This document shows, in pieces, positions 50,469-62,611 of a DNA stretch of 64,000 bases. The position numbers and the translations under genes are program-made. The notes under the pieces are model-generated. The model did not search any database. It was not told the DNA's origin and was given only the letters and a program-made list of their open reading frames with translations. This stretch comes from a virus: positions 42,816 to 106,815 of IMG/VR virus record IMGVR_UViG_3300006316_000001. The stretch is one strand, 5' to 3'. The first letter of the stretch is position 1. The number at the start of each line of letters is the position of its first letter.

Positions 50469-51551
50469 TTAACCTAATAGGTCGAATATGTTGGGTTCTG
50501 GTTCGGTCTGCTGTTCAAAAATGTGACCGCGCCAATCAATCTCACCCCGCTCTAAAAAGAACGACATCGCTTCTTTGTTGATCGGGTCTTTCCGCCCACG
50601 TTCGCCACCTTCTTTGCGAGTTTCTGACGATTGTAGTAATGAGCCATGGAGCATTTCTTTCCTTGCTTCCCAAAGTAGTGACCACTCAATTCCGTCCCAT
50701 CCCTTGGACTGAACGTCGGTGATGTCCAAAAATTGTCGGTCAAGGTAATATCCTGGATACCTACCATCTCTATTACGGAAAAATTTCTTGAAAGCGCAAC
50801 AGACAGTTTCGAACCCAAGACGCTCGACTGACAATCCAAAACGACAATTCGTCTCTTTAATGATTCCATTTGCCTCTTCCTCTAGCCATTCAAGCTCTTC
50901 TTTTGTGAATTTGTGGCGGATCTTTTTACCATCCACCTTACGTTTACACCATTCATCTTTACCTAGTCCGCGACACAATCCGTCACGGTGCGACTCAGAA
51001 CCACCATCACCCAACAACAAACTTGGGATGTCAATCGGGATTCCACATACATCTCGTAGAGCCTGCATATAAAACCAGCATTTGTAGCGACCAAAGTCGT
51101 GGAACTTGATGACCTCATCCCATATGCGTTTGAAGTTCGCCTCACGATCCTCACCACACATACTCATGAACCAAGCATTCTGAGTGCCGTCACCAATGGT
51201 TTCGCGATAGGATTCAAACATCGCTGGCAACTTACCCTTACTGTAACGACAATCCACCTGATAGCGCAACTTGTGGTAATTATCGTCGTTCCACTTAGTT
51301 AAGCGGTCAAGGTCAACCAAGTCATAGTCGGGAAACTCGTTCGCCATCACATACGCTTGTGGGAGTTGATAGCTATTGGCGTACAACCAGACGTACCATA
51401 GACGTTGTTCTTTGTTGTACTCTTGGCGATTGAACATGTAGTTCATCATCCAAATAGCAGGGTCAACATCGCCTCGTAAATACTGCCAAGCTGTGTATTG
51501 GATTAAAAGCTCGCGCCTGTTTTTGTAGTCTGGAGTGCGATAATCAATCAA
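50469..51551 (-). CDS. Amino acid:DNA transferase (aGPT-PPlase clade 2), thymidine hypermodification
   Basis: DYR....RR......AW.....D.DPA.W..NY...R...N.EQRLW..WLY.N.Y...NEFPD...LRYQ.D....KG.LP.MF.SY...FGRY..WFY.Q.L...SHR.GL...ET..C.FKK.FR....RY.GYYLDRQ. Confidence 0.82.
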   Translation of the reverse strand: MIDYRTPDYKNRRELLIQYTAWQYLRGDVDPAIWMMNYMFNRQEYNKEQRLWYVWLYANSYQLPQAYVMANEFPDYDLVDLDRLTKWNDDNYHKLRYQVDCRYSKGKLPAMFESYRETIGDGTQNAWFMSMCGEDREANFKRIWDEVIKFHDFGRYKCWFYMQALRDVCGIPIDIPSLLLGDGGSESHRDGLCRGLGKDEWCKRKVDGKKIRHKFTKEELEWLEEEANGIIKETNCRFGLSVERLGFETVCCAFKKFFRNRDGRYPGYYLDRQFLDITDVQSKGWDGIEWSLLWEARKEMLHGSLLQSSETRKEGGERGRKDPINKEAMSFFLERGEIDWRGHIFEQQTEPEPNIFDLLG

Positions 51552-51982
51552 AATATGTACCCCTTGTTCATCTTAGCCAACTCAGTGATGGCAGCATGAT
51601 ACCCTTCACGTTCTTTATTCCATAATGCGCGAGTGAAACGTTGAGCGACCCACGGCTCAAGTTCTTTATGGTGACGGTTTAATAAAATCTTGTCTAACCA
51701 ATTCATATCACACAACATATCATAGTTCAGGTGAATCAAGAACGATGGGTTCTCTTTGATGAACTGCTTACATGAAGGTGGTAGCTTGACGTCAGCAACC
51801 TTGATTTGGTCATCAATATCACCAACAATCTTCTCAATGATGGCTTGTGTTAGAAAAAGACCGCTACTGTGGATGTAGTGGTCGTTACCAATCTTCTCAA
51901 CGATAGCATCAAGGAAGTTGCCCATGCGTGATTTGAGCTGTTGGATTTGCGGGCTATCTTTGTGAGCAATATGTTTATTCAT
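51548..51982 (-). CDS. Hypothetical protein in modification operon
   Basis: AAGGAG RBS, start MNKHIAHK; overlaps AADT start (ATGA). Confidence 0.65.
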   Translation of the reverse strand: MNKHIAHKDSPQIQQLKSRMGNFLDAIVEKIGNDHYIHSSGLFLTQAIIEKIVGDIDDQIKVADVKLPPSCKQFIKENPSFLIHLNYDMLCDMNWLDKILLNRHHKELEPWVAQRFTRALWNKEREGYHAAITELAKMNKGYIF

Positions 51983-51983
51983 C

Positions 51984-52757
51984 TTAGTCTCCTTTGAAGT
52001 CTTTGATGGTTGTTGGTTTGATTTGGATGTCAATCTGAAGGTCTTGTCCCAAGCCATCCGGATATCTCTTTTTGGCGAAGACTCCTGGATCAGCACGACT
52101 ATATGTACCCATACCCAAAGTTCGACTTTCATAAATGACGCCATTAATGCAATCATCAATCTGGGACTTTTCTATACCTGCGCGAACTAAAGCATCTTGA
52201 GTTGATGAGAAAATTATACCCGTCCCCAAATCAGCGTGCCACAATGGGCGTTGACCGTTGCGGAATCCCTTGATTGTACAATTGGTGGTGTCTAGTTCAA
52301 GAACCGCCATGCTAGCATCTGGGAAATACTTCAGAGGATGGATACCCTGATCAAGTGCTGCTAGAACAAGACTCGAATCATTACCATTTTTGGCAATTAG
52401 CCCGTACTCACTTTCCCAAGTACTCGGATCAGCTTGTGTAATCACACCGTTATGGGCGATAGCTCGTTTCTCACCGAATAATGGTTGGTTGTGCTCAAGG
52501 TCACTGGTTGAGTATCTAGCGTGAGCGATAAGGACAATCTCGTTGTAATCTTCGTCAACAGCATCACTCAAGTTAAACTCACTCAGTAGAGCATCAACTG
52601 GTACTGGCTTGCTGTAACCTTGAATCTTATCATCTTTAATGTACGCCACGCCTGAAGCATGACGACCGCGTATTTGTAAATTTCTAAATACACGTTCACA
52701 CAACTCAAGGTCTTCGCTGGTTGGGTGAACAAAATGCATACCGAATACACCACACAT
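51984..52757 (-). CDS. Class II (Ntn) glutamine amidotransferase domain protein
   Basis: N-terminal MCGVFG, RGRHASG, HARYSTS, NQP, HNGVI, NDS, RN..RPL. Confidence 0.9.
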   Translation of the reverse strand: MCGVFGMHFVHPTSEDLELCERVFRNLQIRGRHASGVAYIKDDKIQGYSKPVPVDALLSEFNLSDAVDEDYNEIVLIAHARYSTSDLEHNQPLFGEKRAIAHNGVITQADPSTWESEYGLIAKNGNDSSLVLAALDQGIHPLKYFPDASMAVLELDTTNCTIKGFRNGQRPLWHADLGTGIIFSSTQDALVRAGIEKSQIDDCINGVIYESRTLGMGTYSRADPGVFAKKRYPDGLGQDLQIDIQIKPTTIKDFKGD

Positions 52758-52767
52758 AATAATGCTC

Positions 52768-53205
52768 CTATTTGATGTCTAAATCATTAATGAACCACGT
52801 ACAATCAGGATTATACTCACCCACACCACTTGTGGACAAGAACTCTTCCTTTGTCTTTCCATAATACGGATACCCAGAACACATTCCAGGACGGTTTTCG
52901 TAGTTTGTGCACACCCCATTAACTAGATGCTTACATAGGAAGTGGCTCGCTTTCTGTGCCCATTTGCGTAGACCTTTGTCTTTGTATTTGAACATCTGTG
53001 GATTGATCTTCTTGGCACGACGCTTCTTTATTGGAATCAACATGTCAGCGACTTTCTGACGTTCATCACTGTAGTCAGACAAATCCCAATCAGCTCTATT
53101 ATCAGGGAATTTGCGAACAAAATTTTTGTAGCCTTGAGTGGCGACAATACGAAGGACTTTACAACAGTCATAGCAGCGCTCGCCATTAATCATACAATGT
53201 TCCAT
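52768..53205 (-). CDS. YkgJ-family Cys-cluster (Fe-S/Zn) protein
   Basis: C......CYDCC...CKHL..GVCTNYENRPGMCSGYP...C. Confidence 0.82.
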   Translation of the reverse strand: MEHCMINGERCYDCCKVLRIVATQGYKNFVRKFPDNRADWDLSDYSDERQKVADMLIPIKKRRAKKINPQMFKYKDKGLRKWAQKASHFLCKHLVNGVCTNYENRPGMCSGYPYYGKTKEEFLSTSGVGEYNPDCTWFINDLDIK

Positions 53206-53316: not shown

Positions 53317-53340
53317 AAAAAAGGCTCCCGAAGGAGCCTA
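53317..53340 (-). terminator. UUCG-loop terminator after GNAT
   Basis: Minus strand AGGCTCC-TTCG-GGAGCC-TTTTTT. Confidence 0.8.
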
Positions 53341-53343
53341 TTT

Positions 53344-53946
53344 TTATGAGAAGATATCTTTCTTTAGGTGAGTCGCCAGCGAACTGTAATTGTGGTCGTC
53401 GCCAGTTGACGATTCTGGATGAACGCGCCTTTGTATTAGATCTATGACTGACTGATTATCATGTCCCAATAAGACACTCATGTCGGGACTATAGCTCAAA
53501 TAGTCATCTAAGGTTTTGAGTAGAGGCATGTTACAGTAATAGTCTCCACTTCTCGTGATTCCCCAGTATGTGAATCCCAATCTATTGTAGAATTTTATTG
53601 CGGAAGGAGCACAATTCATTCTGATTCTAGAAAGTTCGCATTCATTACCTTCTTGTATTGCAACTTCCATAATTTTTCTGGCGTACCCAAATTTCCGATA
53701 TTTCTTTGGCGTCAAAAGATTTATTATGGACAAATACCCGTCTTTGGTTTTGTTTAAGAAAAGAACGGTTACGATTTTACCATCAACTTCCAGACACAAA
53801 ACAGGCTTGGCTTTCCAATCATAGAATCTGTTATGGAATTCGATTGAATTTTCTGAGAATCTCAAGGTTTCCTTATCATCTAAATCTATCGTATTATGGA
53901 AGTATTCTCTGTATGAGAATTCACTATCAATATTTATAATGTTCAT
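53344..53946 (-). CDS. GNAT-family acyltransferase
   Basis: Acyl-CoA motif LLTPKKYRKFGYARKIM and SAIKFYNRLGF; start MNIINID after AAGGA RBS. Confidence 0.85.
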   Translation of the reverse strand: MNIINIDSEFSYREYFHNTIDLDDKETLRFSENSIEFHNRFYDWKAKPVLCLEVDGKIVTVLFLNKTKDGYLSIINLLTPKKYRKFGYARKIMEVAIQEGNECELSRIRMNCAPSAIKFYNRLGFTYWGITRSGDYYCNMPLLKTLDDYLSYSPDMSVLLGHDNQSVIDLIQRRVHPESSTGDDHNYSSLATHLKKDIFS

Positions 53947-53960
53947 ATCCACTTTCCTTA

Positions 53961-53984
53961 TAAAAATGGCTCCCGAAGGAGCCT
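53961..53984 (-). terminator. UUCG-loop hairpin/terminator between BCCT and GNAT
   Basis: Minus strand AGGCTCCTTCGGGAGCC-ATTTTT. Confidence 0.65.
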
Positions 53985-53993
53985 TAATAGGAA

Positions 53994-55322
53994 TTACTTT
54001 ACCATCTTGAACGCTTGAACTACCATGTTTAGGTATAGCGCTGCTATTGGTAACCCTAGGATTGCAATCACAATCTTCAGAGCATTCCAAGCTTCAGGTC
54101 CAAACATTTGGAAGCTAATAGCCATGAACGCTACAAATACAACCCAGCAACCTGAACTTGTTTTACCTTCGCTCATCTCATCCAAAGCAATCGAACCAGA
54201 GTCAACACAAGTAACCATCCACAAACACATTGCCACTAACAGTACACCACCAGCAATCTCACCATACGGGATAACCTGCTCAAGCAAGACGAACGGATCA
54301 TTAACTTCAAGAATCTCAGCAGCCGAACCTAGTACACCGAAGAAGAAACAAGTGATAACCATCGGAATAACACCAACACCAACAATCACTTCACGAACAG
54401 TACGCCCTTGGGAAATTGTGGTAAAGAACGCCACGCTGAACGGTAGGAAAGTGAACCACCAAGCCGCATAGAAGTATGGCCACCAGAATAACCAGCCATT
54501 GTGATCTTCGCTAGCACCAGCACCAGTATCGAAGCCATACTCAAATAGATTACTCAACATCATCCCGAAGCTTTGGAATGTGTACTTTAGTGTATCCATA
54601 CCAACAAACCAAGCCACCGCTGCTGTGATGATTACACCTGTAACCATTGCGCCATTACTCAACCATTTCACCCCACGCAGAACACCTGACTTTGCTGACG
54701 CTAGGCTGATAATCGCAAACACCACCATCAGTATACTCTGATCAACATCAATGCCGAATGTTCCCTTAAGACCCGATTGAACGCCAGAAGCTGCTATTGT
54801 GAATGACGACACGATTGCGATTACCGTAGTTACACACATGAGAACCATAGAGGCTGATGTTGCCTTTTTGCCCATGTTAGGAGTGAATACAGCTTTACCC
54901 TTTGACCAGAATATACCGCCAGCCGCAGTCGCCACAGCAAACATGATATAAGCTGGACCCCAGTTATACATGGTGCGAGCAATAGCATCAGTGGTTTCGA
55001 AACCAGCCTCAACGTGATAGCTTGGTTCAGATACGCCCCAAACGAACAGTGATGAACCAATTACCGTTGATACGCACATACCGTACCAGCTGAGGTTACC
55101 AATTCGCTTCTCTCCTGGAAGCTTGATATTGGCAAATTTGGAGTTGAACGCTAGTACCGCTGCGATAAATACCGAAGCCATAATTGTTGCGTTCATCATC
55201 CAACCGAAGTCACCGAGGACTCCCTTTCGGATTGAACCAAGGATGTTACTGACATCTTCAGTAAAGAACGATGACGCCAGACCGAGTGTTAGTAGAATTA
55301 AGATTGTGTATAGGCTCTTCAT
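53994..55322 (-). CDS. BCCT-family (betaine/carnitine/choline) transporter, compact and divergent
   Basis: About 12 hydrophobic segments; FGW, SKFANIKL, SW..M, WGVSEP.YH, T.YNWG, SGV.RGVKWLSN, W...W.YFYAAWW..F.PF...F...ISQGRTVRE, VT..DS. Confidence 0.88.
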   Translation of the reverse strand: MKSLYTILILLTLGLASSFFTEDVSNILGSIRKGVLGDFGWMMNATIMASVFIAAVLAFNSKFANIKLPGEKRIGNLSWYGMCVSTVIGSSLFVWGVSEPSYHVEAGFETTDAIARTMYNWGPAYIMFAVATAAGGIFWSKGKAVFTPNMGKKATSASMVLMCVTTVIAIVSSFTIAASGVQSGLKGTFGIDVDQSILMVVFAIISLASAKSGVLRGVKWLSNGAMVTGVIITAAVAWFVGMDTLKYTFQSFGMMLSNLFEYGFDTGAGASEDHNGWLFWWPYFYAAWWFTFLPFSVAFFTTISQGRTVREVIVGVGVIPMVITCFFFGVLGSAAEILEVNDPFVLLEQVIPYGEIAGGVLLVAMCLWMVTCVDSGSIALDEMSEGKTSSGCWVVFVAFMAISFQMFGPEAWNALKIVIAILGLPIAALYLNMVVQAFKMVK

Positions 55323-55382
55323 GTTAATTTCCTTATTCATTGCGCCAGTTGTAGTGGCCAAGACCACGTAAAAATGTATGGA

Positions 55383-56381
55383 TTATCGTAACCATCCGTA
55401 TGTTTCCTTAATTTCTTTGAGTAGTTCTTTAGTGATTTCAGAACCGTTCGCATAGTTGTATTTGCGGAAGTTGTCCTCCATCACCTGATCATTATGAGGC
55501 ATTGGGGGAAAGTCCCAGTCATCACGCATTGCAATAACGTCGTGAATTGTTTTGTGTGGCTCATTTAGCGCAGTCTCAATACACATTGCTGTGAATAGAG
55601 CCACATTTGCCATTTGTTTACCTTGGCGAGTGCCCCAATTACTACGGTTCTCGATAGTTGGGTGTTTACCGCCCTTACCGCGAAGTCGTGTAGTGTTCAA
55701 TCCTGGACGTTGCATCATCCAAGAAGGTTTATTGTCCTTTGTCTGATTCGCTTGCCCGTCAATTACCCCGCGTGCCGTGTCTGCAGCTAATGCACGCTCC
55801 AAATTAGCATCACGGAGAACTGAGCAACAAGCGCCCATCATGTATTTGAACAATTTAGGGTCACAAGTTTCCTTGTCTATATTGAACGCTGGAGGATTCG
55901 TCTTAGTGATATCTTCCCAGTTATTGGTAGCCCACCAGAACAGTCGCTTCATGCCATCGCGGTCTTCAGTTAGACCTTCAACACCAACGTGAACGTGGCC
56001 ACCCGAACGTCCCGAAACTGAAATCTCATGACCGATATGAGCTTCTTGCATAGCAATCATTTGGTCCCACGCATCGCCAAGTTCTTCGGGTGAGTTGTAC
56101 ACTGCTGTGTTAACTTCACCACCGCGATTAGAGATAGGAAGATCACCTTCGTATTGATCTTTGAGAGGCCAAGAAGCTTTACCGTCGCGATTACCACATT
56201 CACTCTCAGAGTAAGACCATGACCAACCTTCAGGAAGTGGACCACTTTTATCGACATCATTAACTTCAGCATCGATACCGAAAGTGAATGTCTTAATGTC
56301 GTATTTCGCTTTAACCTGCATCCATGGCTCGTTTTGAACTAGTTCCAATGGAGTTGGTTCTACATCACCGAATATGTTCAT
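55383..56381 (-). CDS. Putative amidoligase (COOH-NH2 ligase, glutamine synthetase/GCS-like), paralog 2
   Basis: TFGIDAE, GGEVNT, SGGHVHVG, RPGLN, TIENR. Confidence 0.78.
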   Translation of the reverse strand: MNIFGDVEPTPLELVQNEPWMQVKAKYDIKTFTFGIDAEVNDVDKSGPLPEGWSWSYSESECGNRDGKASWPLKDQYEGDLPISNRGGEVNTAVYNSPEELGDAWDQMIAMQEAHIGHEISVSGRSGGHVHVGVEGLTEDRDGMKRLFWWATNNWEDITKTNPPAFNIDKETCDPKLFKYMMGACCSVLRDANLERALAADTARGVIDGQANQTKDNKPSWMMQRPGLNTTRLRGKGGKHPTIENRSNWGTRQGKQMANVALFTAMCIETALNEPHKTIHDVIAMRDDWDFPPMPHNDQVMEDNFRKYNYANGSEITKELLKEIKETYGWLR

Positions 56382-56392
56382 GCTCTATACCC

Positions 56393-57382
56393 CTAAATGT
56401 TGTTTGGTTCTTGACGTACACGGTATGTGTTTTTGTCGTCAGCCTTCAGCTCGCCAATACGGTTCTTTCTATCAATCAAGGATTCTACATACCCGACCAT
56501 GATGTCGCGTTCATATTTGATCTTAGGAAATTTCCATTCAGGATGTCTGTCTAGAATAGACTGAACTGATTCACCAGTATTAAGCGCAGCATTAACGAAC
56601 TCTTCACAGAACTCAAAACAGCAACGTAGTTCATCGCGATCAAGAGAACCACGGAATGCGCGGAACTCTAACGTACCCATTCGCCCAAGCGGATAAAGAT
56701 TGACAGCCGCTCTTGACATTGGCATTCCCTTTCGTGAACCGCTACTTTCGTGACGACTTTCGCCCATCTTATGTGCGTCAATCAACTCAAATAGGTTGGT
56801 TACTGACGGAAGACGCTCACGATACCAATCAGGGATTTTAGTGGTTGACACATAATCTAAGTATTTATGACAGCCCCATGTGGATCCTGGAAGCTTAATA
56901 TCTTCGTAGACAGCAAATACAGGTTCGCCGAACAGATCAGTCTCACCAGTATCATATTTGTAGTCTTCATCAGTTAGACGGAAACATGCATTAATGTATG
57001 CTTGGCGATTATCTTCATTAGCAGAGTAGATTGCTAATCTTCGCAGAGCATCACCATCTTCAGTGAGTCCTGGAATATGCATATGAATGTGGGTTACTTG
57101 GTAGTGGGACATTGTCGGGTGTGGGAAGAAATCTATGATTTCCATGATGCGATCAAGTTGGTCTGGCCAACCTACCGTTGGAACCGTGTTAATTTCGCCA
57201 CCCATATGGCAATCTTCACCAGATGGGTCAGCAGCGATTCCGCGAAACTCACCCAACATATTGATGATATCATGCTCACACCATTCCCACTATCCGAGAT
57301 GCTCAGGAATTTCGGTTCGCTTATCAACGTCACCTAGTTCCAACTCAGTACCGTATTGGAATGTTTCTTTAGGGTAATTCAT
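56393..57382 (-). CDS. Putative amidoligase paralog 1; in-frame TAG at codon 31 (57290-57292)
   Basis: AAGGA RBS plus ATG 57382: MNYPKETFQYGTELELGDVDKRTEIPEHLG*WEWCEHDIIN, continuing in frame into ORF 57259 (GGEINT, HIHMH, RAAVN, TLEFRAFRG). Confidence 0.78.
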
Positions 57383-57403: not shown

Positions 57404-57478
57404 GGGGAAGCGTCAACCTTTAACACTTTACCCCATAACAACCATTATACTCTTATTTTACGAGAAGTAAAGCTTTTT
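57404..57478 (-). promoter_or_regulatory. Early promoter cassette copy 7
   Basis: -35 57467-57472, -10 57444-57449, leader hairpin with G-U pairs. Confidence 0.85.
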
Positions 57479-59324
57479 ATAGATAATTATTGATGAACCA
57501 TTGTACGGTGGTTGGAATATCCATCGAATGATCCACCCAAACCGCCCTAACGCCACCATAACCGTTAGTGCCTTCGATGCAACGCTCTGCCTTCACTCGC
57601 GTTTCTTCCCATTTGGACTCAACGTTCTTGGTGTTCGGTGTTTTACCTTGAGCTGCGTTGCGTTTCACTAGACGTTCCATGCACACTTCTAGAGGTGTAT
57701 CCATGAATAGCATATGAGGCGTCATACCCATTTCTTTAAAACGATCAATGTGCCATCGACTAGAACTCAGTACCACACCTTCCATCATGATATGATAATC
57801 GTCGAATTCCGGTCGCCCCATGATGATATCCAACGCTTGTTCCATTGTAGCTCTAACCAATGTATCGCATCCAGCAATGTTGGTTCCAGGAGTGTAGTCC
57901 CCAATAAGGATGATTCCAAGATTGGGTAGTACCGTGGCGAATCCAGATTTCTTGGTTGTGGCTTGGAAACCTTTAGACATATTCCCAGACAACCAAGCGA
58001 ACTCTGTTGAGAGAAGGTACGCATCAGTGTCACGTTCAACGAGTCCCTTGGGGATGGTAGATTTTCCTGAACCATTCGTGCCAAGTAGCTGATACATGGT
58101 ACGGCTCTCACGGTGCCCATACTTAGAACCTGTGTACTCTGGTTTTGGGTCGAAGAGAGTGTCTTCATAAAGGTCGGTTCTTCGTACTTCTGAATCAACA
58201 CGTTTGCGCTCTTTATGGAGTTCAAGTTGCTCATCATCTGTGATTCGCTTACCCATGTAGGGGATAGTGCGGTTTGGATCATTCGGGGCTTCATTTTTTA
58301 CCTTCTTGGGTCTTTTCATATCTTCACCTGTTCCATCAAAACTAACACGCGCACGCGGCTTCTTACCTTCTTTTACTTGTTCATTACAACGAACGTACTT
58401 ACTGAATTCACAGAAGCAGTTCTCTAATGACATCACATTCATTGTGCGATCTTTTGGGTCAAGGTCGGTCATTAAGTTCTCAGTGAACGATGTTCCGAAT
58501 ACTTCATCTTGATTATCACGCAACCAGAATAATAGCTCTTCATCAGTCAAACCATCAGGGTCTGTGAATAGCATACTTAGACCGAGTGAACATCCTGGAC
58601 CAGCGATAGTGAATTCGTTCTCGCTGAACTTATAGTCTGGGCAGTACGTGAAGTCAACAAACATCTGATAGCTCAAAAATTCGCCAATTCCAGGAACATC
58701 CATCAGGATATTACAAACCTCGCGCGGTGATTCTGCTGAGTGGATATCGTCGAATAGACCCTTACCGATCATCCAATCAATTAGAGCCATTGGTCGAGCC
58801 GGAATGTACACCTCACCCGTTAGGCGACCGGATGCAGCCTTCATACCACCAGTATTGAATGCTGATGTGAAGAACACGTAATCTGAGTCACTGGTTTGTT
58901 TAGCCTGTAGAATCTTTTTGCGATCCATCATCCACCCACCATACTCATTCTGAACCCCAGAAAATGAAGCAGGTAGGTTAATCAACTCACACGTTTCCCA
59001 TTTATTGTACAATCGGAATAGGACTAGGTTGATGATGCGCGTGGTCAAACTCAAATCTGTGCGATTACAGATATGTTCGATAGCCCACTTGGTGGCACGA
59101 TCATGCTCGCGTCTAACGTTAGTGAACTTCACATTCTGTAGAATTGTATTGGATGTCCAAGGCGCGGGAAGCTTCATAACATCTTTCTTCAAATGGATGT
59201 TGTAACGCTCGGTTATCCATTCCACCAATAGACCCAGCTTAACTGGGTCCATGGGTGGTTTTGCGTAATGGATCTTACCTTGACTGACGCCACAATATGG
59301 GACATCATGAGGTCTATTTAACAT
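57477..59324 (-). CDS. 5-hydroxymethyluracil DNA kinase (aGPT-PPlase clade 1) fused to a P-loop nucleotide kinase
   Basis: N-terminal WI.ER..I..KK.....PWT...IL...KFTNVRREHDR, LFRLYN, G.G.FLSYQ..VD, GPG...GL, ENCFCEFSKY; C-terminal GTNGSGKST, G.Y.....AGCDT, MEG, DTPLEVC.ER...RN. Confidence 0.85.
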   Translation of the reverse strand: MLNRPHDVPYCGVSQGKIHYAKPPMDPVKLGLLVEWITERYNIHLKKDVMKLPAPWTSNTILQNVKFTNVRREHDRATKWAIEHICNRTDLSLTTRIINLVLFRLYNKWETCELINLPASFSGVQNEYGGWMMDRKKILQAKQTSDSDYVFFTSAFNTGGMKAASGRLTGEVYIPARPMALIDWMIGKGLFDDIHSAESPREVCNILMDVPGIGEFLSYQMFVDFTYCPDYKFSENEFTIAGPGCSLGLSMLFTDPDGLTDEELLFWLRDNQDEVFGTSFTENLMTDLDPKDRTMNVMSLENCFCEFSKYVRCNEQVKEGKKPRARVSFDGTGEDMKRPKKVKNEAPNDPNRTIPYMGKRITDDEQLELHKERKRVDSEVRRTDLYEDTLFDPKPEYTGSKYGHRESRTMYQLLGTNGSGKSTIPKGLVERDTDAYLLSTEFAWLSGNMSKGFQATTKKSGFATVLPNLGIILIGDYTPGTNIAGCDTLVRATMEQALDIIMGRPEFDDYHIMMEGVVLSSSRWHIDRFKEMGMTPHMLFMDTPLEVCMERLVKRNAAQGKTPNTKNVESKWEETRVKAERCIEGTNGYGGVRAVWVDHSMDIPTTVQWFINNYL

Positions 59325-59577
59325 AGAGGATTTCCTTATATGTTGTTCCGTTAGGAGTTACGGTTCGGGTGTGAACCAACTTACCTGAAACGAAAATTTG
59401 TTCTTCGAACATGTATTTATTTAGGTGTAGTTGTTTAACCTCAACCACAAGGTTAGGATCAAACATCAAATCTTCGTGACGCTCAAGAGTGCTGTTCTTT
59501 TCCGTCATAATAAGTAATTCTGAATCAGTTTCTTGGTTTGTGCATGTTTTGTAATCGGGGATGTTATTGATGCTCAT
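59314..59577 (-). CDS. Hypothetical protein
   Basis: ORF overlapping the kinase gene start. Confidence 0.55.
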   Translation of the reverse strand: MSINNIPDYKTCTNQETDSELLIMTEKNSTLERHEDLMFDPNLVVEVKQLHLNKYMFEEQIFVSGKLVHTRTVTPNGTTYKEILYVK

Positions 59578-59755: not shown

Positions 59756-59868
59756 AATAAATAGCCTTTTAATGGTAAGGGTTAACCGTTAACCCTATAA
59801 CAACCATTATACTCTTATTTTACGAGAAGTAAAGCTTTTTAGCTAAATTTGAATGCAAAAAAGGTTCC
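59749..59868 (-). promoter_or_regulatory. Early promoter cassette copy 8 (right 120-bp repeat bounding the modification locus)
   Basis: -35 59829-59834, -10 59806-59811, perfect leader hairpin AGGGTTAA-CGG-TTAACCCT. Confidence 0.85.
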
Positions 59869-59883: not shown

Positions 59884-60762
59884 TTAACGTGTATAGAACC
59901 AGTGATCGCCATAGCGACCTTTGAACTCCATGGTCTTCCACCACACAGCCTTAGATTTGTACTTATTCAGGTAATGGTCAGCATCACCGACAAGGTTGGG
60001 AATCTGTCTAGTCAGCACCATGTGAGCTATGTAATAAGAGCGAGCTCTAGCATCAGCATCAACCATTTCATCAGAAAGTCCATCAAGAGTCCAACTGAAC
60101 ATTGGTACCCATTTCTTATACTTACTGCTCCATTTCTTTTCCCAAATAACTTCCTTTATGGTGTTTGGCCAATGTCTCTTTTTGACACGATTCAATACAA
60201 CGTAACCTATTTGTGCGATATCAATATCGCTCGCGATTGAACTTCTCTCTTCGAAATATAGGTTTTGAGCCATGTAGTGTAACTCAGCATCACTATATGG
60301 TTTGATGTATGGAGTTTCGCTCATTATCTTGTAGTGCGGTAAAAGAACCGTCCCCTCACCGACCGTCCCCGCATATGCTTTGTAGCAGAAGAATAGAGCC
60401 GTTAGGATGAGAAGGACAACGTGAACCATTATGGTTTGCTTTAGTGATACCAAGCCAACTTCCCTTGGAATTTCCTTCTTCACCTGAATATGTTCCAGAG
60501 GGATTATAACATCATTAATGGAACAGAGAGTTTTACACACGAACTCCATGACGATGTGCTTATCATCGACGCGCATGACAACAGCATCTATTAATTTGAC
60601 ATCATCAAAGTATGTTTGAATCACCGCTAGCATTTTCGGGTGAACGTGCCCATGGTTATTGTGTATCTCTTTGCGCTCATTCTCCGAACTTAGAGCACCA
60701 CAAATTACCTTGTATACTGGATCACCAATATCAATGGTCCAAGAATTGCCAATCTTATTCAT
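59884..60762 (-). CDS. SleB/Hydrolase_2-family cell wall hydrolase with N-terminal extension and TM/signal segment
   Basis: MAQNLYFEERS, VVLNRV...WPNTIKEVI, FSW, ADHY, HWFY. Confidence 0.85.
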   Translation of the reverse strand: MNKIGNSWTIDIGDPVYKVICGALSSENERKEIHNNHGHVHPKMLAVIQTYFDDVKLIDAVVMRVDDKHIVMEFVCKTLCSINDVIIPLEHIQVKKEIPREVGLVSLKQTIMVHVVLLILTALFFCYKAYAGTVGEGTVLLPHYKIMSETPYIKPYSDAELHYMAQNLYFEERSSIASDIDIAQIGYVVLNRVKKRHWPNTIKEVIWEKKWSSKYKKWVPMFSWTLDGLSDEMVDADARARSYYIAHMVLTRQIPNLVGDADHYLNKYKSKAVWWKTMEFKGRYGDHWFYTR

Positions 60763-61683: not shown

Positions 61684-62367
61684 CTATAATAAGATCAATT
61701 TACCATCGGATTCAGACAACACACCATCAACATGAACATATGTGACGTTGCGTCTCATCATATCGGATGTGTTTTCTGAGGTACGCCCGTATGGTACACC
61801 ATAAACCACACGTGAAACGCCTGAGTTTGCTATGTTTTTGGAACAGTCAGCGCAAGGTTGGTGAGTACAATATAATGTACCGCCTTGGATATCATCACGA
61901 TTCGAATGCAGCAACGCATTCATCTCAGCGTGTATTTCATGCTCAGAAGACCATTTGTGATGCTTATCGTACAATTCCTTCAGTTTGTTTGTGCCCAATA
62001 TCTCGCAACCAAGTCTAATTTCTTGCTTGATTGCCTCAACCTCTTCTTCGAAGTTGGGGAAGCGGTCACAACAATTACTATCACCTGCGGGTGTGCCATT
62101 GTAACCTGACGCTACAATACGACCTTGACTGTTAACGATGATGCACCCAACCTGATGCTTAACGCACTTGCTTTGGAGCGACTCAATGTAAGCCTGTCTC
62201 AGCCGTGTTTCGTCAAATTTCTCTATTTTGGTAATTTTAATTCTGGGTAAAGTACCAATATCTTCCATAGATTTTAAGCTCGCTTCCCATTTAACATCGT
62301 TAATATCTGGATTTGGAAAACATTCATCACACATTTCAGGGCTGGACCGCCCATGCTCGCACGCCAT
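61684..62367 (-). CDS. dCMP deaminase
   Basis: SKC...QVGC, GYNGTP.G..NC, HAEMNAL, LYCTHQPCADC. Confidence 0.93.
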   Translation of the reverse strand: MACEHGRSSPEMCDECFPNPDINDVKWEASLKSMEDIGTLPRIKITKIEKFDETRLRQAYIESLQSKCVKHQVGCIIVNSQGRIVASGYNGTPAGDSNCCDRFPNFEEEVEAIKQEIRLGCEILGTNKLKELYDKHHKWSSEHEIHAEMNALLHSNRDDIQGGTLYCTHQPCADCSKNIANSGVSRVVYGVPYGRTSENTSDMMRRNVTYVHVDGVLSESDGKLILL

Positions 62368-62368
62368 A

Positions 62369-62611
62369 CTACTTACCTCGTAAAAATCGGTTAAGTTCTG
62401 CCGCACCACCAATCATCTCATCATCGATGAATATCATTGGGAATGTTTTGTGGTTGTGCGTTTCCGCCAACTTTCTGAACTCTTCTTCCGTATAGTCCTT
62501 GCCTAGAGACTTGTAGGTGAAGTTCATTTGGTGTCGTTTTAGCATTGATTGTGCGCTAACGCAGAACTGACAGAATTCTTTACCTAAAACTGTGATGTTT
62601 GGATTTGCCAT
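62369..62611 (-). CDS. Glutaredoxin
   Basis: CQFC active site, TFPMIFID...IGG. Confidence 0.92.
   Translation of the reverse strand: MANPNITVLGKEFCQFCVSAQSMLKRHQMNFTYKSLGKDYTEEEFRKLAETHNHKTFPMIFIDDEMIGGAAELNRFLRGK

Follow-up and report, generated by a model that had tools for sequence, protein, structure and literature searches.

This work deals with a viral DNA stretch of 64,000 nucleotides (hereafter the window), which corresponds to bases 42816-106815 of the IMG/VR virus record IMGVR_UViG_3300006316_000001, a record of 106,815 bp rated complete by CheckV, and with one gene of its minus strand (53994..55322) that codes for a divergent, tail-less secondary transporter of the BCCT family. 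The open reading frame (ORF), counted from a GTG codon, occupies positions 53994..55367; translation likely starts at the ATG at 55322, which has AAGGA 8 nucleotides (nt) upstream and yields the form of 442 amino acids (aa) present in protein databases. ORF translation, Pfam, AlphaFold2 and Foldseek agree on the family that a first-pass annotation of this DNA had already assigned to the gene. The match to the Pfam BCCT profile (PF02028) extends from position 4 to position 482 of the 485 in the profile, with an E-value of 2e-53 and a score of 182 bits, the cut-off being 27, and it was also recovered in a whole-genome search of the record. Among the solved structures, BetP, TmaT, DddT and BetT are matched by sequence. 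The AlphaFold2 model, built with 100 homologues as input, reaches a mean pLDDT of 95 and a pTM of 0.94 and presents the twelve-helix LeuT-type fold, with transmembrane helices 3 and 8 (TM3 and TM8) broken at residues 87-91 and 280-282. Its Foldseek TM-scores to TmaT, BetP, BetT and CaiT are between 0.83 and 0.92, which supplies the structural comparison with BetP and CaiT that the first-pass annotation had proposed.

In this model the protein is helical from residue 2 to residue 441 and hence has neither N- nor C-terminal tails, in agreement with the earlier claim that long terminal tails are missing; being tail-less, the transporter also lacks the osmosensing domain of BetP. It scores far under the cut-off of each of the NCBIfam curated models compared, namely the TIGR00842 subfamily (129 of 408 bits), the glycine betaine equivalog NF047988 (124 of 650), BetT (66 of 695) and CaiT (65 of 541). 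An identical protein is encoded on a second contig of 114 kb, and a third copy shows 5 conservative residue differences. Judging from the sequence and the predicted model, the gene encodes a real and intact BCCT-fold carrier without the regulatory tails of the BetP type.

The transporter gene is part of a unit whose order, always on the minus strand, is promoter, amidoligase 1, amidoligase 2, BCCT, hairpin, GNAT acetyltransferase and terminator. At the head of the unit, an early promoter-like site read from the sequence (TTTACT-16-TATAAT, 57444..57471) belongs to a cassette that is present in four identical copies in the region of 50-60 kb, at 59833, 57471, 53293 and 50417, all of them on the minus strand. 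Between the copy at 57471 and the transporter gene there is no site of equal quality. The intergenic gaps are short: 11 nt between the two amidoligase genes, 60 nt between amidoligase 2 (stop at 55383) and the BCCT gene, and 47 nt between the latter and GNAT. The spacing of 60 bp and the grouping of the transporter with both ligase genes under one promoter had been noticed in the first-pass annotation and hold on closer inspection. A terminator-like hairpin (GGCTCC-TTCG-GGAGCC, 53968..53983, minus strand), followed by the T-rich tail ATTTTTAT, separates the stop codon of the BCCT gene from the start of GNAT. This 16-nt hairpin, GGCTCCTTCGGGAGCC, is found twice, after the BCCT stop and again after GNAT, where it is followed by the tail TTTTTTAC and forms the intrinsic terminator-like structure that closes the unit (53322..53339, minus strand). 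The first copy (53983-53968) may attenuate the expression of GNAT, which encodes 200 aa from an ATG at 53946 (53344..53946, minus strand) and has no promoter of its own.

Both genes upstream of the transporter are amidoligase-like. Amidoligase 1 (56393..57382, minus strand; a frame of 329 codons) encodes a carboxylate-amine ligase of the glutamine synthetase (GS) fold, and amidoligase 2 (55383..56381, minus strand), which directly precedes the BCCT gene, is its divergent paralogue (BLASTP E-value 7e-7). The motifs G-x-E-x-E, GGEINT, H-x-H and T-x-E-F-R are invariant among amidoligase 1 and nine homologues; those seen in amidoligase 2 are HVHV / TIENR, D-x-E and GGEVNT. The direct scores of the pair with the Pfam Amidoligase_2 model are sub-threshold (13.6-15.6 bits), but that of the homologue P0203, at 22.2 bits, passes the cut-off of 22. 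The AlphaFold2 model of amidoligase 1 has a pLDDT of 81, and its top Foldseek matches are all glutamine synthetases or gamma-glutamylcysteine synthetases (GCS); aligned over about 185 residues with glutamine synthetases, GmaS, the 1-naphthylamine-glutamylating GS and YbdK, it obtains a Z-score of about 10. The motifs, the paralogy, the score of P0203 and the fold matches sustain the amidoligase label that had been given to the two neighbours, and a GS/GCS2 catalytic fold is the assignment supported by motifs and model. PDB sequence searches with both amidoligases gave no match, and amidoligase 2 found nothing in viral contigs and only its own cluster in a word-based search of 5.8 billion proteins.

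In this record, amidoligase 1 contains an in-frame TAG at codon 31 (57292-57290, minus strand). The otherwise identical protein P0195, encoded on a contig of 114,070 bp, has AAG (Lys) at this codon, and the TAG is due either to a nonsense mutation at the level of the strain or to an error in the assembly. Recoding of TAG was considered and rejected, as the neighbouring genes are read normally in translation table 11. An ATG at 57259, downstream of the TAG, would give a product of 288 aa without the E-x-E strand.

The unit lies inside a cluster of genes for the hypermodification of thymidine. The gene for the 5-hydroxymethyldeoxyuridine (5-hmdU) DNA kinase is found 2.2 kb upstream of the transporter gene, in the preceding unit (57477..59324, minus strand), and its product contains the HMUDK_hel and HMUDK P-loop domains (PF18723, E-value 2.7e-65; PF18748, E-value 1.5e-17). 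The gene for the amino-acid:DNA transferase AADT (50469-51551, minus strand) is located 2.4 kb downstream. It belongs to a unit (50469..53205, minus strand) that is preceded by the promoter copy at 53293-53266 and also includes a CxxCxxCC protein (52768-53205), a stand-alone class-II glutamine amidotransferase (GATase; 51984-52757) and a small unknown ORF. A dCMP deaminase (61684..62412, minus strand), which would supply dUMP for 5-hmdU synthesis, is encoded 2 kb away, and a thymidylate-synthase-like gene is present elsewhere in the same genome. Kinase, AADT, GATase, GNAT, dCMP deaminase and the thymidylate-synthase-like protein are predicted to make up a complete thymidine-hypermodification pathway such as those described by Lee et al. 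(PMC8989533), so that the position of the transporter gene within a DNA-modification locus, suggested in the first-pass annotation, is borne out. Amidoligase and amidotransferase genes have been reported in clusters of this kind, where their role was unknown, and in the characterised pathways free intracellular amino acids or putrescine serve as building blocks; a transporter is never mentioned in that work (PMC8989533), and the literature searched describes no such pathway that includes one. In the vicinity of the kinase gene, two further genes have been observed: a small T4 Cef-like protein is encoded at 59314-59577, overlapping the start of the kinase gene, and a cell-wall hydrolase with a Hydrolase_2 domain (59884-60762) is found just upstream, among genes of nucleotide metabolism.

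The widespread form of this module is known from IMG/VR, in which 287 stretches encode relatives of amidoligase 1; 80 loci (1.03 Mb) were kept for the counts. GATase is present in 76 of them, AADT in 75 and GNAT in 29, in the order GATase-amidoligase-(GNAT)-AADT, with the GNAT start about 90-120 nt after the amidoligase. Amidoligase 2 and the transporter gene of the window sit exactly between amidoligase 1 and GNAT, two genes that are adjacent in the module of the relatives. The simplest account of this layout is that both genes constitute an old, lineage-specific two-gene addition to a widespread pathway.

A second case is provided by the Escherichia phages vB_EcoM_IME392 (MH719082) and EP_H11 (OP688485), which are unrelated to the lineage of the window phage. 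Their BCCT protein is also short (460 aa) and tail-less and belongs to the same clade. Its gene is three genes away from an HMUDK_hel gene and adjoins a thymidylate-synthase-like gene, in a block that also holds a P-loop protein, a PIG-L deacetylase, a methyltransferase and proteins without assignment. The IME392 transporter is 30% identical to that of the window and retains the canonical G-M-G motif and the W...W..Y box. Neither AADT nor a GS-type amidoligase is detectable in the IME392 cluster; only the BCCT gene and the kinase are detectably common to both systems, and the tailoring genes differ. The protein encoded next to the IME392 transporter gave no match in a PDB sequence search. The co-occurrence of this BCCT clade with modification genes, which the first-pass annotation had proposed as a check, is thus found in one further and independent setting; the part of that check that turned out otherwise is considered below. 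Most 'phage' records with BCCT matches (Acinetobacter MD-2021a, Staphylococcus SA 1306, Listeria LM and fecal 'Bacteriophage sp.') look like bacterial or unannotated contigs and were not counted.

Another type of phage BCCT has been observed in the Vibrio phages 1.031.O (MG592415, L003:7812-10810) and 150E35-1 (OX241562, L163:2363-5364). There, a three-gene module consists of a cytidylyltransferase-like and choline/ethanolamine-kinase fusion, a BCCT-like gene of 411 aa and LicD, in this order; the fusion is annotated as 'coil containing protein' and the BCCT-like product as 'TMhelix containing protein'. From its gene content, the module looks like a complete pathway of import, activation and transfer of phosphocholine. 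In the lic operon of bacteria, LicB is the choline importer for phosphocholine decoration, and the Vibrio-phage pathway, of the lic type and with a BCCT predicted in place of LicB, appears to be a clear case of a phage BCCT that is placed as the importer of a pathway. The searched genome of Vibrio phage 1.031.O contains neither 5-hmdU kinase nor AADT, and the target of the module is likely not DNA. The Vibrio-phage protein is too distant to match the window transporter at an E-value of 1e-5.

The relatives of the window transporter are few and remote. When 1.84 billion cluster representatives were searched exhaustively with HMMER, its own cluster was recovered and, beyond it, no BCCT above 31% identity. 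The best of these further matches are short BCCTs of 414-461 aa, among them P0040, the protein of E. coli phage vB_EcoM_IME392. In a maximum-likelihood tree of 101 sequences the window protein is basal in a seven-member clade (SH-aLRT 97), together with P0093, P0039, P0040, P0045, P0081 and P0041. P0041 and P0045 come from contigs of 112-113 kb and P0081 from a contig of 214 kb. Besides the window gene, the genomic context was covered for P0040 and for the P0039-type genes. The latter are found on bacterial contigs with 60-66% guanine plus cytosine (GC), beside a 3-hydroxyacyl-CoA-dehydrogenase-type enzyme, an esterase and an AraC/DJ-1 regulator, a setting that looks like a carnitine-type catabolic locus. 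Two high-GC metagenome contigs illustrate the surroundings of bacterial relatives: in one (L006:7649-12505), a relative of the short BCCT clade is accompanied by a 3-hydroxyacyl-CoA-dehydrogenase-type gene, an esterase and an AraC/DJ-1 regulator, and the other (L008:5796-11305) carries three tandem BCCT paralogues together with an AraC/DJ-1 regulator, an aminotransferase and a zinc dehydrogenase. Both look like catabolic loci for carnitine or quaternary amines.

Scans of viral contigs with the window protein, the clade alignments A1 and A2, P0041 and P0039 gave no match. P0045 had no match in GTDB genomes and only distant ones in plasmids, and the 10-kb locus had no megablast match among phage records. 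The GC content and the GC at third codon positions (GC3) of the transporter gene and of amidoligase 2 are those of the surrounding phage genes. A recent capture of the BCCT gene from a host was rejected on the basis of this agreement in GC and GC3 and of the lack of relatives above 31% identity.

The substrate site departs from the family pattern. Residues were mapped to BetP by means of the HMMER alignment and counted by column over the 100 nearest homologues. Y125 occupies a position that is W in 99 of them (BetP W194), V87 one that is G in 93 (G149), S91 one that is G in 83 (G153), A286 one that is W in 78 (W371), F292 one that is W in 87 (W377), F128 one that is Y in 87 (Y197) and V297 one that is G in 90; besides, S468 of BetP is replaced by Cys. 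In TM3 the stretch A-G-M-G-I-G of BetP reads T-V-I-G-S-S, and of the glycine-rich G-x-G-x-G motif, which lines the substrate and Na2 sites, the central glycine alone is left (V87-I88-G89-S90-S91). In TM8, the signature W..FYWAWWI.W.PF retains W281, Y285, W288, W289, P294 and F295, and has A at 286 and F at 292 instead of W. The three atypical motif strings singled out in the first-pass annotation are all present in the protein, the family patterns given there match the consensus of the 100 homologues, and the column counts substantiate the deviation that had been claimed.

Several residues of BetP are maintained: W189 (W121 in the window protein), W373 (W288), W374 (W289), F380 (F295), T467 (T371) and D470 (D374). 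The aromatic box of TM4 (BetP W189, W194 and Y197) keeps its tryptophan at W121 and has Y and F at the other two positions, being aromatic throughout, and the six cage positions (W121, Y125, F128, W288, W289 and F292) are all aromatic. The betaine pocket of BetP has been experimentally defined as W189, W194, Y197, W374 and W377 and is conserved in Vibrio BccT1 (10.1101/2020.05.29.123752). Three of these five residues are altered in the window protein, each being replaced by another aromatic residue. As the cation-pi cage survives, the class of substrate cannot be read from the sequence, with which substrates with and without a trimethylammonium group are both compatible; the latter had been put forward as a possibility in the first-pass annotation.

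The best explanation of these data, although it can only be advanced tentatively, is that the transporter imports a precursor for a step added to the phage DNA chemistry by amidoligase 2; it is preferred because of the insertion layout, the independent case of IME392 and the lic module of the Vibrio phages. According to this proposal, a host-type promoter would drive the joint production of the transporter and the two carboxylate-amine ligases of the GS fold at an early stage of infection. The carrier would be placed in the inner membrane of the host, where the gradient of a putative coupling ion would drive the import of a small cationic or zwitterionic compound through the aromatic cage, and amidoligase 2 would join this cargo, by ATP-dependent amide formation, to a group already present on the phage DNA. 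That group would arise from the common pathway, in which 5-hmdU is acted on by the 5-hmdU DNA kinase, an amino acid is installed by AADT and the product is tailored by amidoligase 1, GATase and GNAT. A more specific version appears somewhat unlikely: it states that an environmental quaternary or zwitterionic amine is ligated by amidoligase 2 to the amino acid on 5-hydroxymethyluracil, and that at least two lineages have come to do so independently, with ligases of different folds.

Various observations weigh against import for DNA modification. No BCCT, nor any ORF with at least five hydrophobic or membrane segments, is found in the 80 IMG/VR loci with the amidoligase-GATase-AADT module, and since the core module is transporter-free in all of them, import cannot be more than an accessory step. 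In one relative (L135), two amidoligase paralogues stand in tandem and a BCCT is absent. Conversely, modification genes are absent from the 62 IMG/VR loci with ordinary BCCT genes; tblastn did not find them in 77 metagenome BCCT loci either, the best of which are bacterial. It is in these counts, and in the catabolic setting of the nearest bacterial clade members, that the co-occurrence suggested in the first-pass annotation proves not to be general: the transporter is not conserved with the cluster across relatives, and the cases in which it accompanies the cluster are limited to near-identical copies of this phage and to the independent one of the IME392-type phages. The bacterial members in carnitine-type catabolic loci indicate, moreover, that the clade is not confined to DNA modification. 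That genes are neighbours in an early region of a phage is weak evidence of a common function, and the operon picture is complicated by the hairpin directly after the BCCT gene and by the amber codon of amidoligase 1. Finally, the loss of most of the TM3 glycine motif and the change of S468 to Cys suggest that activity of the transporter is not assured.

The main rival to the proposed importer of a DNA precursor, which we consider somewhat unlikely, is auxiliary uptake of osmolytes or nutrients (glycine betaine, choline, dimethylsulfoniopropionate, ectoine or similar compounds) unrelated to DNA chemistry; the infected marine cell would be kept turgid and productive, and the position in the operon would be an accident of phage gene packing. 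BCCTs are classical osmolyte importers, several of which are used by Vibrio hosts (10.1101/2020.05.29.123752), and the BCCT of an algal virus has been interpreted in this way (PMC13431477). The aromatic cage of the quaternary-amine type is retained, the bacterial clade members are catabolic or uptake genes, and the related modification modules do without a transporter. However, a typical host-derived auxiliary gene would be expected to have closer relatives than the 31% identity found here, the near-invariant residues of the substrate site have changed and the osmosensing tail is lacking. Besides, two unrelated phage lineages have placed a BCCT gene inside 5-hmdU clusters, each of which takes up about one tenth of the genome. 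The Vibrio phages, which provide the remaining genuine cases of phage BCCTs, likewise have the gene within a pathway that uses the substrate. A related alternative, according to which one-carbon units are what the transporter provides, is very improbable: methylated amines such as betaine or choline would be imported as a one-carbon source for the hydroxymethylation of dUMP, and no cargo would be ligated. Demethylation of methylated amines by the host would replenish methylene-tetrahydrofolate, which would account for the linkage to 5-hmdU genes, and both phage lineages with this BCCT encode a thymidylate-synthase-like dUMP hydroxymethylase. Nevertheless, the demand would not exceed that of normal thymidylate synthesis, a transporter of this kind is lacking in most 5-hmdU phages, the route relies on catabolic enzymes of the host, and the direct pairing of the transporter with a ligase gene is left unexplained.

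It has also been considered that the importer feeds the ligases and GNAT, the product being a small molecule, a protein or a component of the envelope instead of DNA. This seems improbable in view of the fact that amidoligase 1 homologues occur with AADT in 75 of the 80 loci, which ties the ligase family to the DNA pathway, and that the pair of amidoligase 2 and BCCT is inserted between two genes of the DNA-modification module. On the other hand, amidoligases of the GS fold commonly act on small molecules, GmaS, the 1-naphthylamine GS and YbdK being among the structural matches, and the BCCT-LicD module of Vibrio phage 1.031.O, which lacks 5-hmdU kinase and AADT, indicates that the target need not be DNA. 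Slightly less probable still is a protein that no longer transports, either as a decaying remnant or in another membrane role (host membrane potential or superinfection exclusion). The loss of near-invariant residues (BetP G149, G153, W194 and W371, and the glycine at position 297 of the window protein), the 129 bits against a curated NCBIfam BCCT cut-off of 408 and, in this record, the amber codon of amidoligase 1 would fit with loss of transport. Against it, the frame is intact over 442 codons, and the protein is identical on the second contig and shows only conservative changes in the third copy; the BCCT fold is predicted at very high confidence, the gating and coupling residues W121, W288, W289, P294, F295, T371 and D374 are retained, and the amber codon of amidoligase 1 is absent from the sister contig.

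The BCCT protein family and the core of hypermodification were already known; within the literature searched, a transporter wired into such a cluster is new. If the transporter acts as the proposed importer, the chemistry of phage DNA, and hence its resistance to restriction and nucleases, may depend on the supply of compounds from the environment, and importer and ligase together would point to DNA adducts of a new class, which arise by ATP-dependent amide ligation. If osmolyte uptake is the true function, the gene is merely a very divergent auxiliary gene. The presence of a BCCT in the 5-hmdU cluster of two unrelated lineages makes a functional link more credible, and IME392 and EP_H11 offer a cultured system. 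The case of the window adds a binding site that has diverged much further, as well as evidence for the insertion of amidoligase 2 and BCCT.

Compared with known hypermodification systems, the window has the same core of 5-hmdU DNA kinase and AADT as the pathways of ViI, M6, PaMx11 and PhiW-14, and its GNAT has a counterpart in the acetyltransferase of the PaMx11 pathway; none of these four pathways includes a transporter, unlike the window (PMC8989533). As regards known carriers, the trimethylamine transporter TmaT (PDB 8ZXK/8ZW8) is the best Foldseek match (E-value 4e-18, TM-score 0.88) and the second-best family by sequence (E-value 5e-20, 25% identity). BetP of Corynebacterium glutamicum, a Na+/glycine betaine symporter (PDB 2WIT, 4AIN and 4LLH), shares the twelve-helix LeuT-type BCCT fold with TM-scores of 0.88-0.92 and matches residues 10-407 by sequence (E-value 3e-22, about 24% identity). 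The regulatory and osmosensing tails of BetP are both missing from the window protein. By function, the proposed system may be likened to that of LicB; whereas LicB belongs to a different transporter family and serves the decoration of a cell-surface glycan, the window transporter would resemble it as a dedicated importer that shares an operon with the enzymes that couple its cargo to a polymer.

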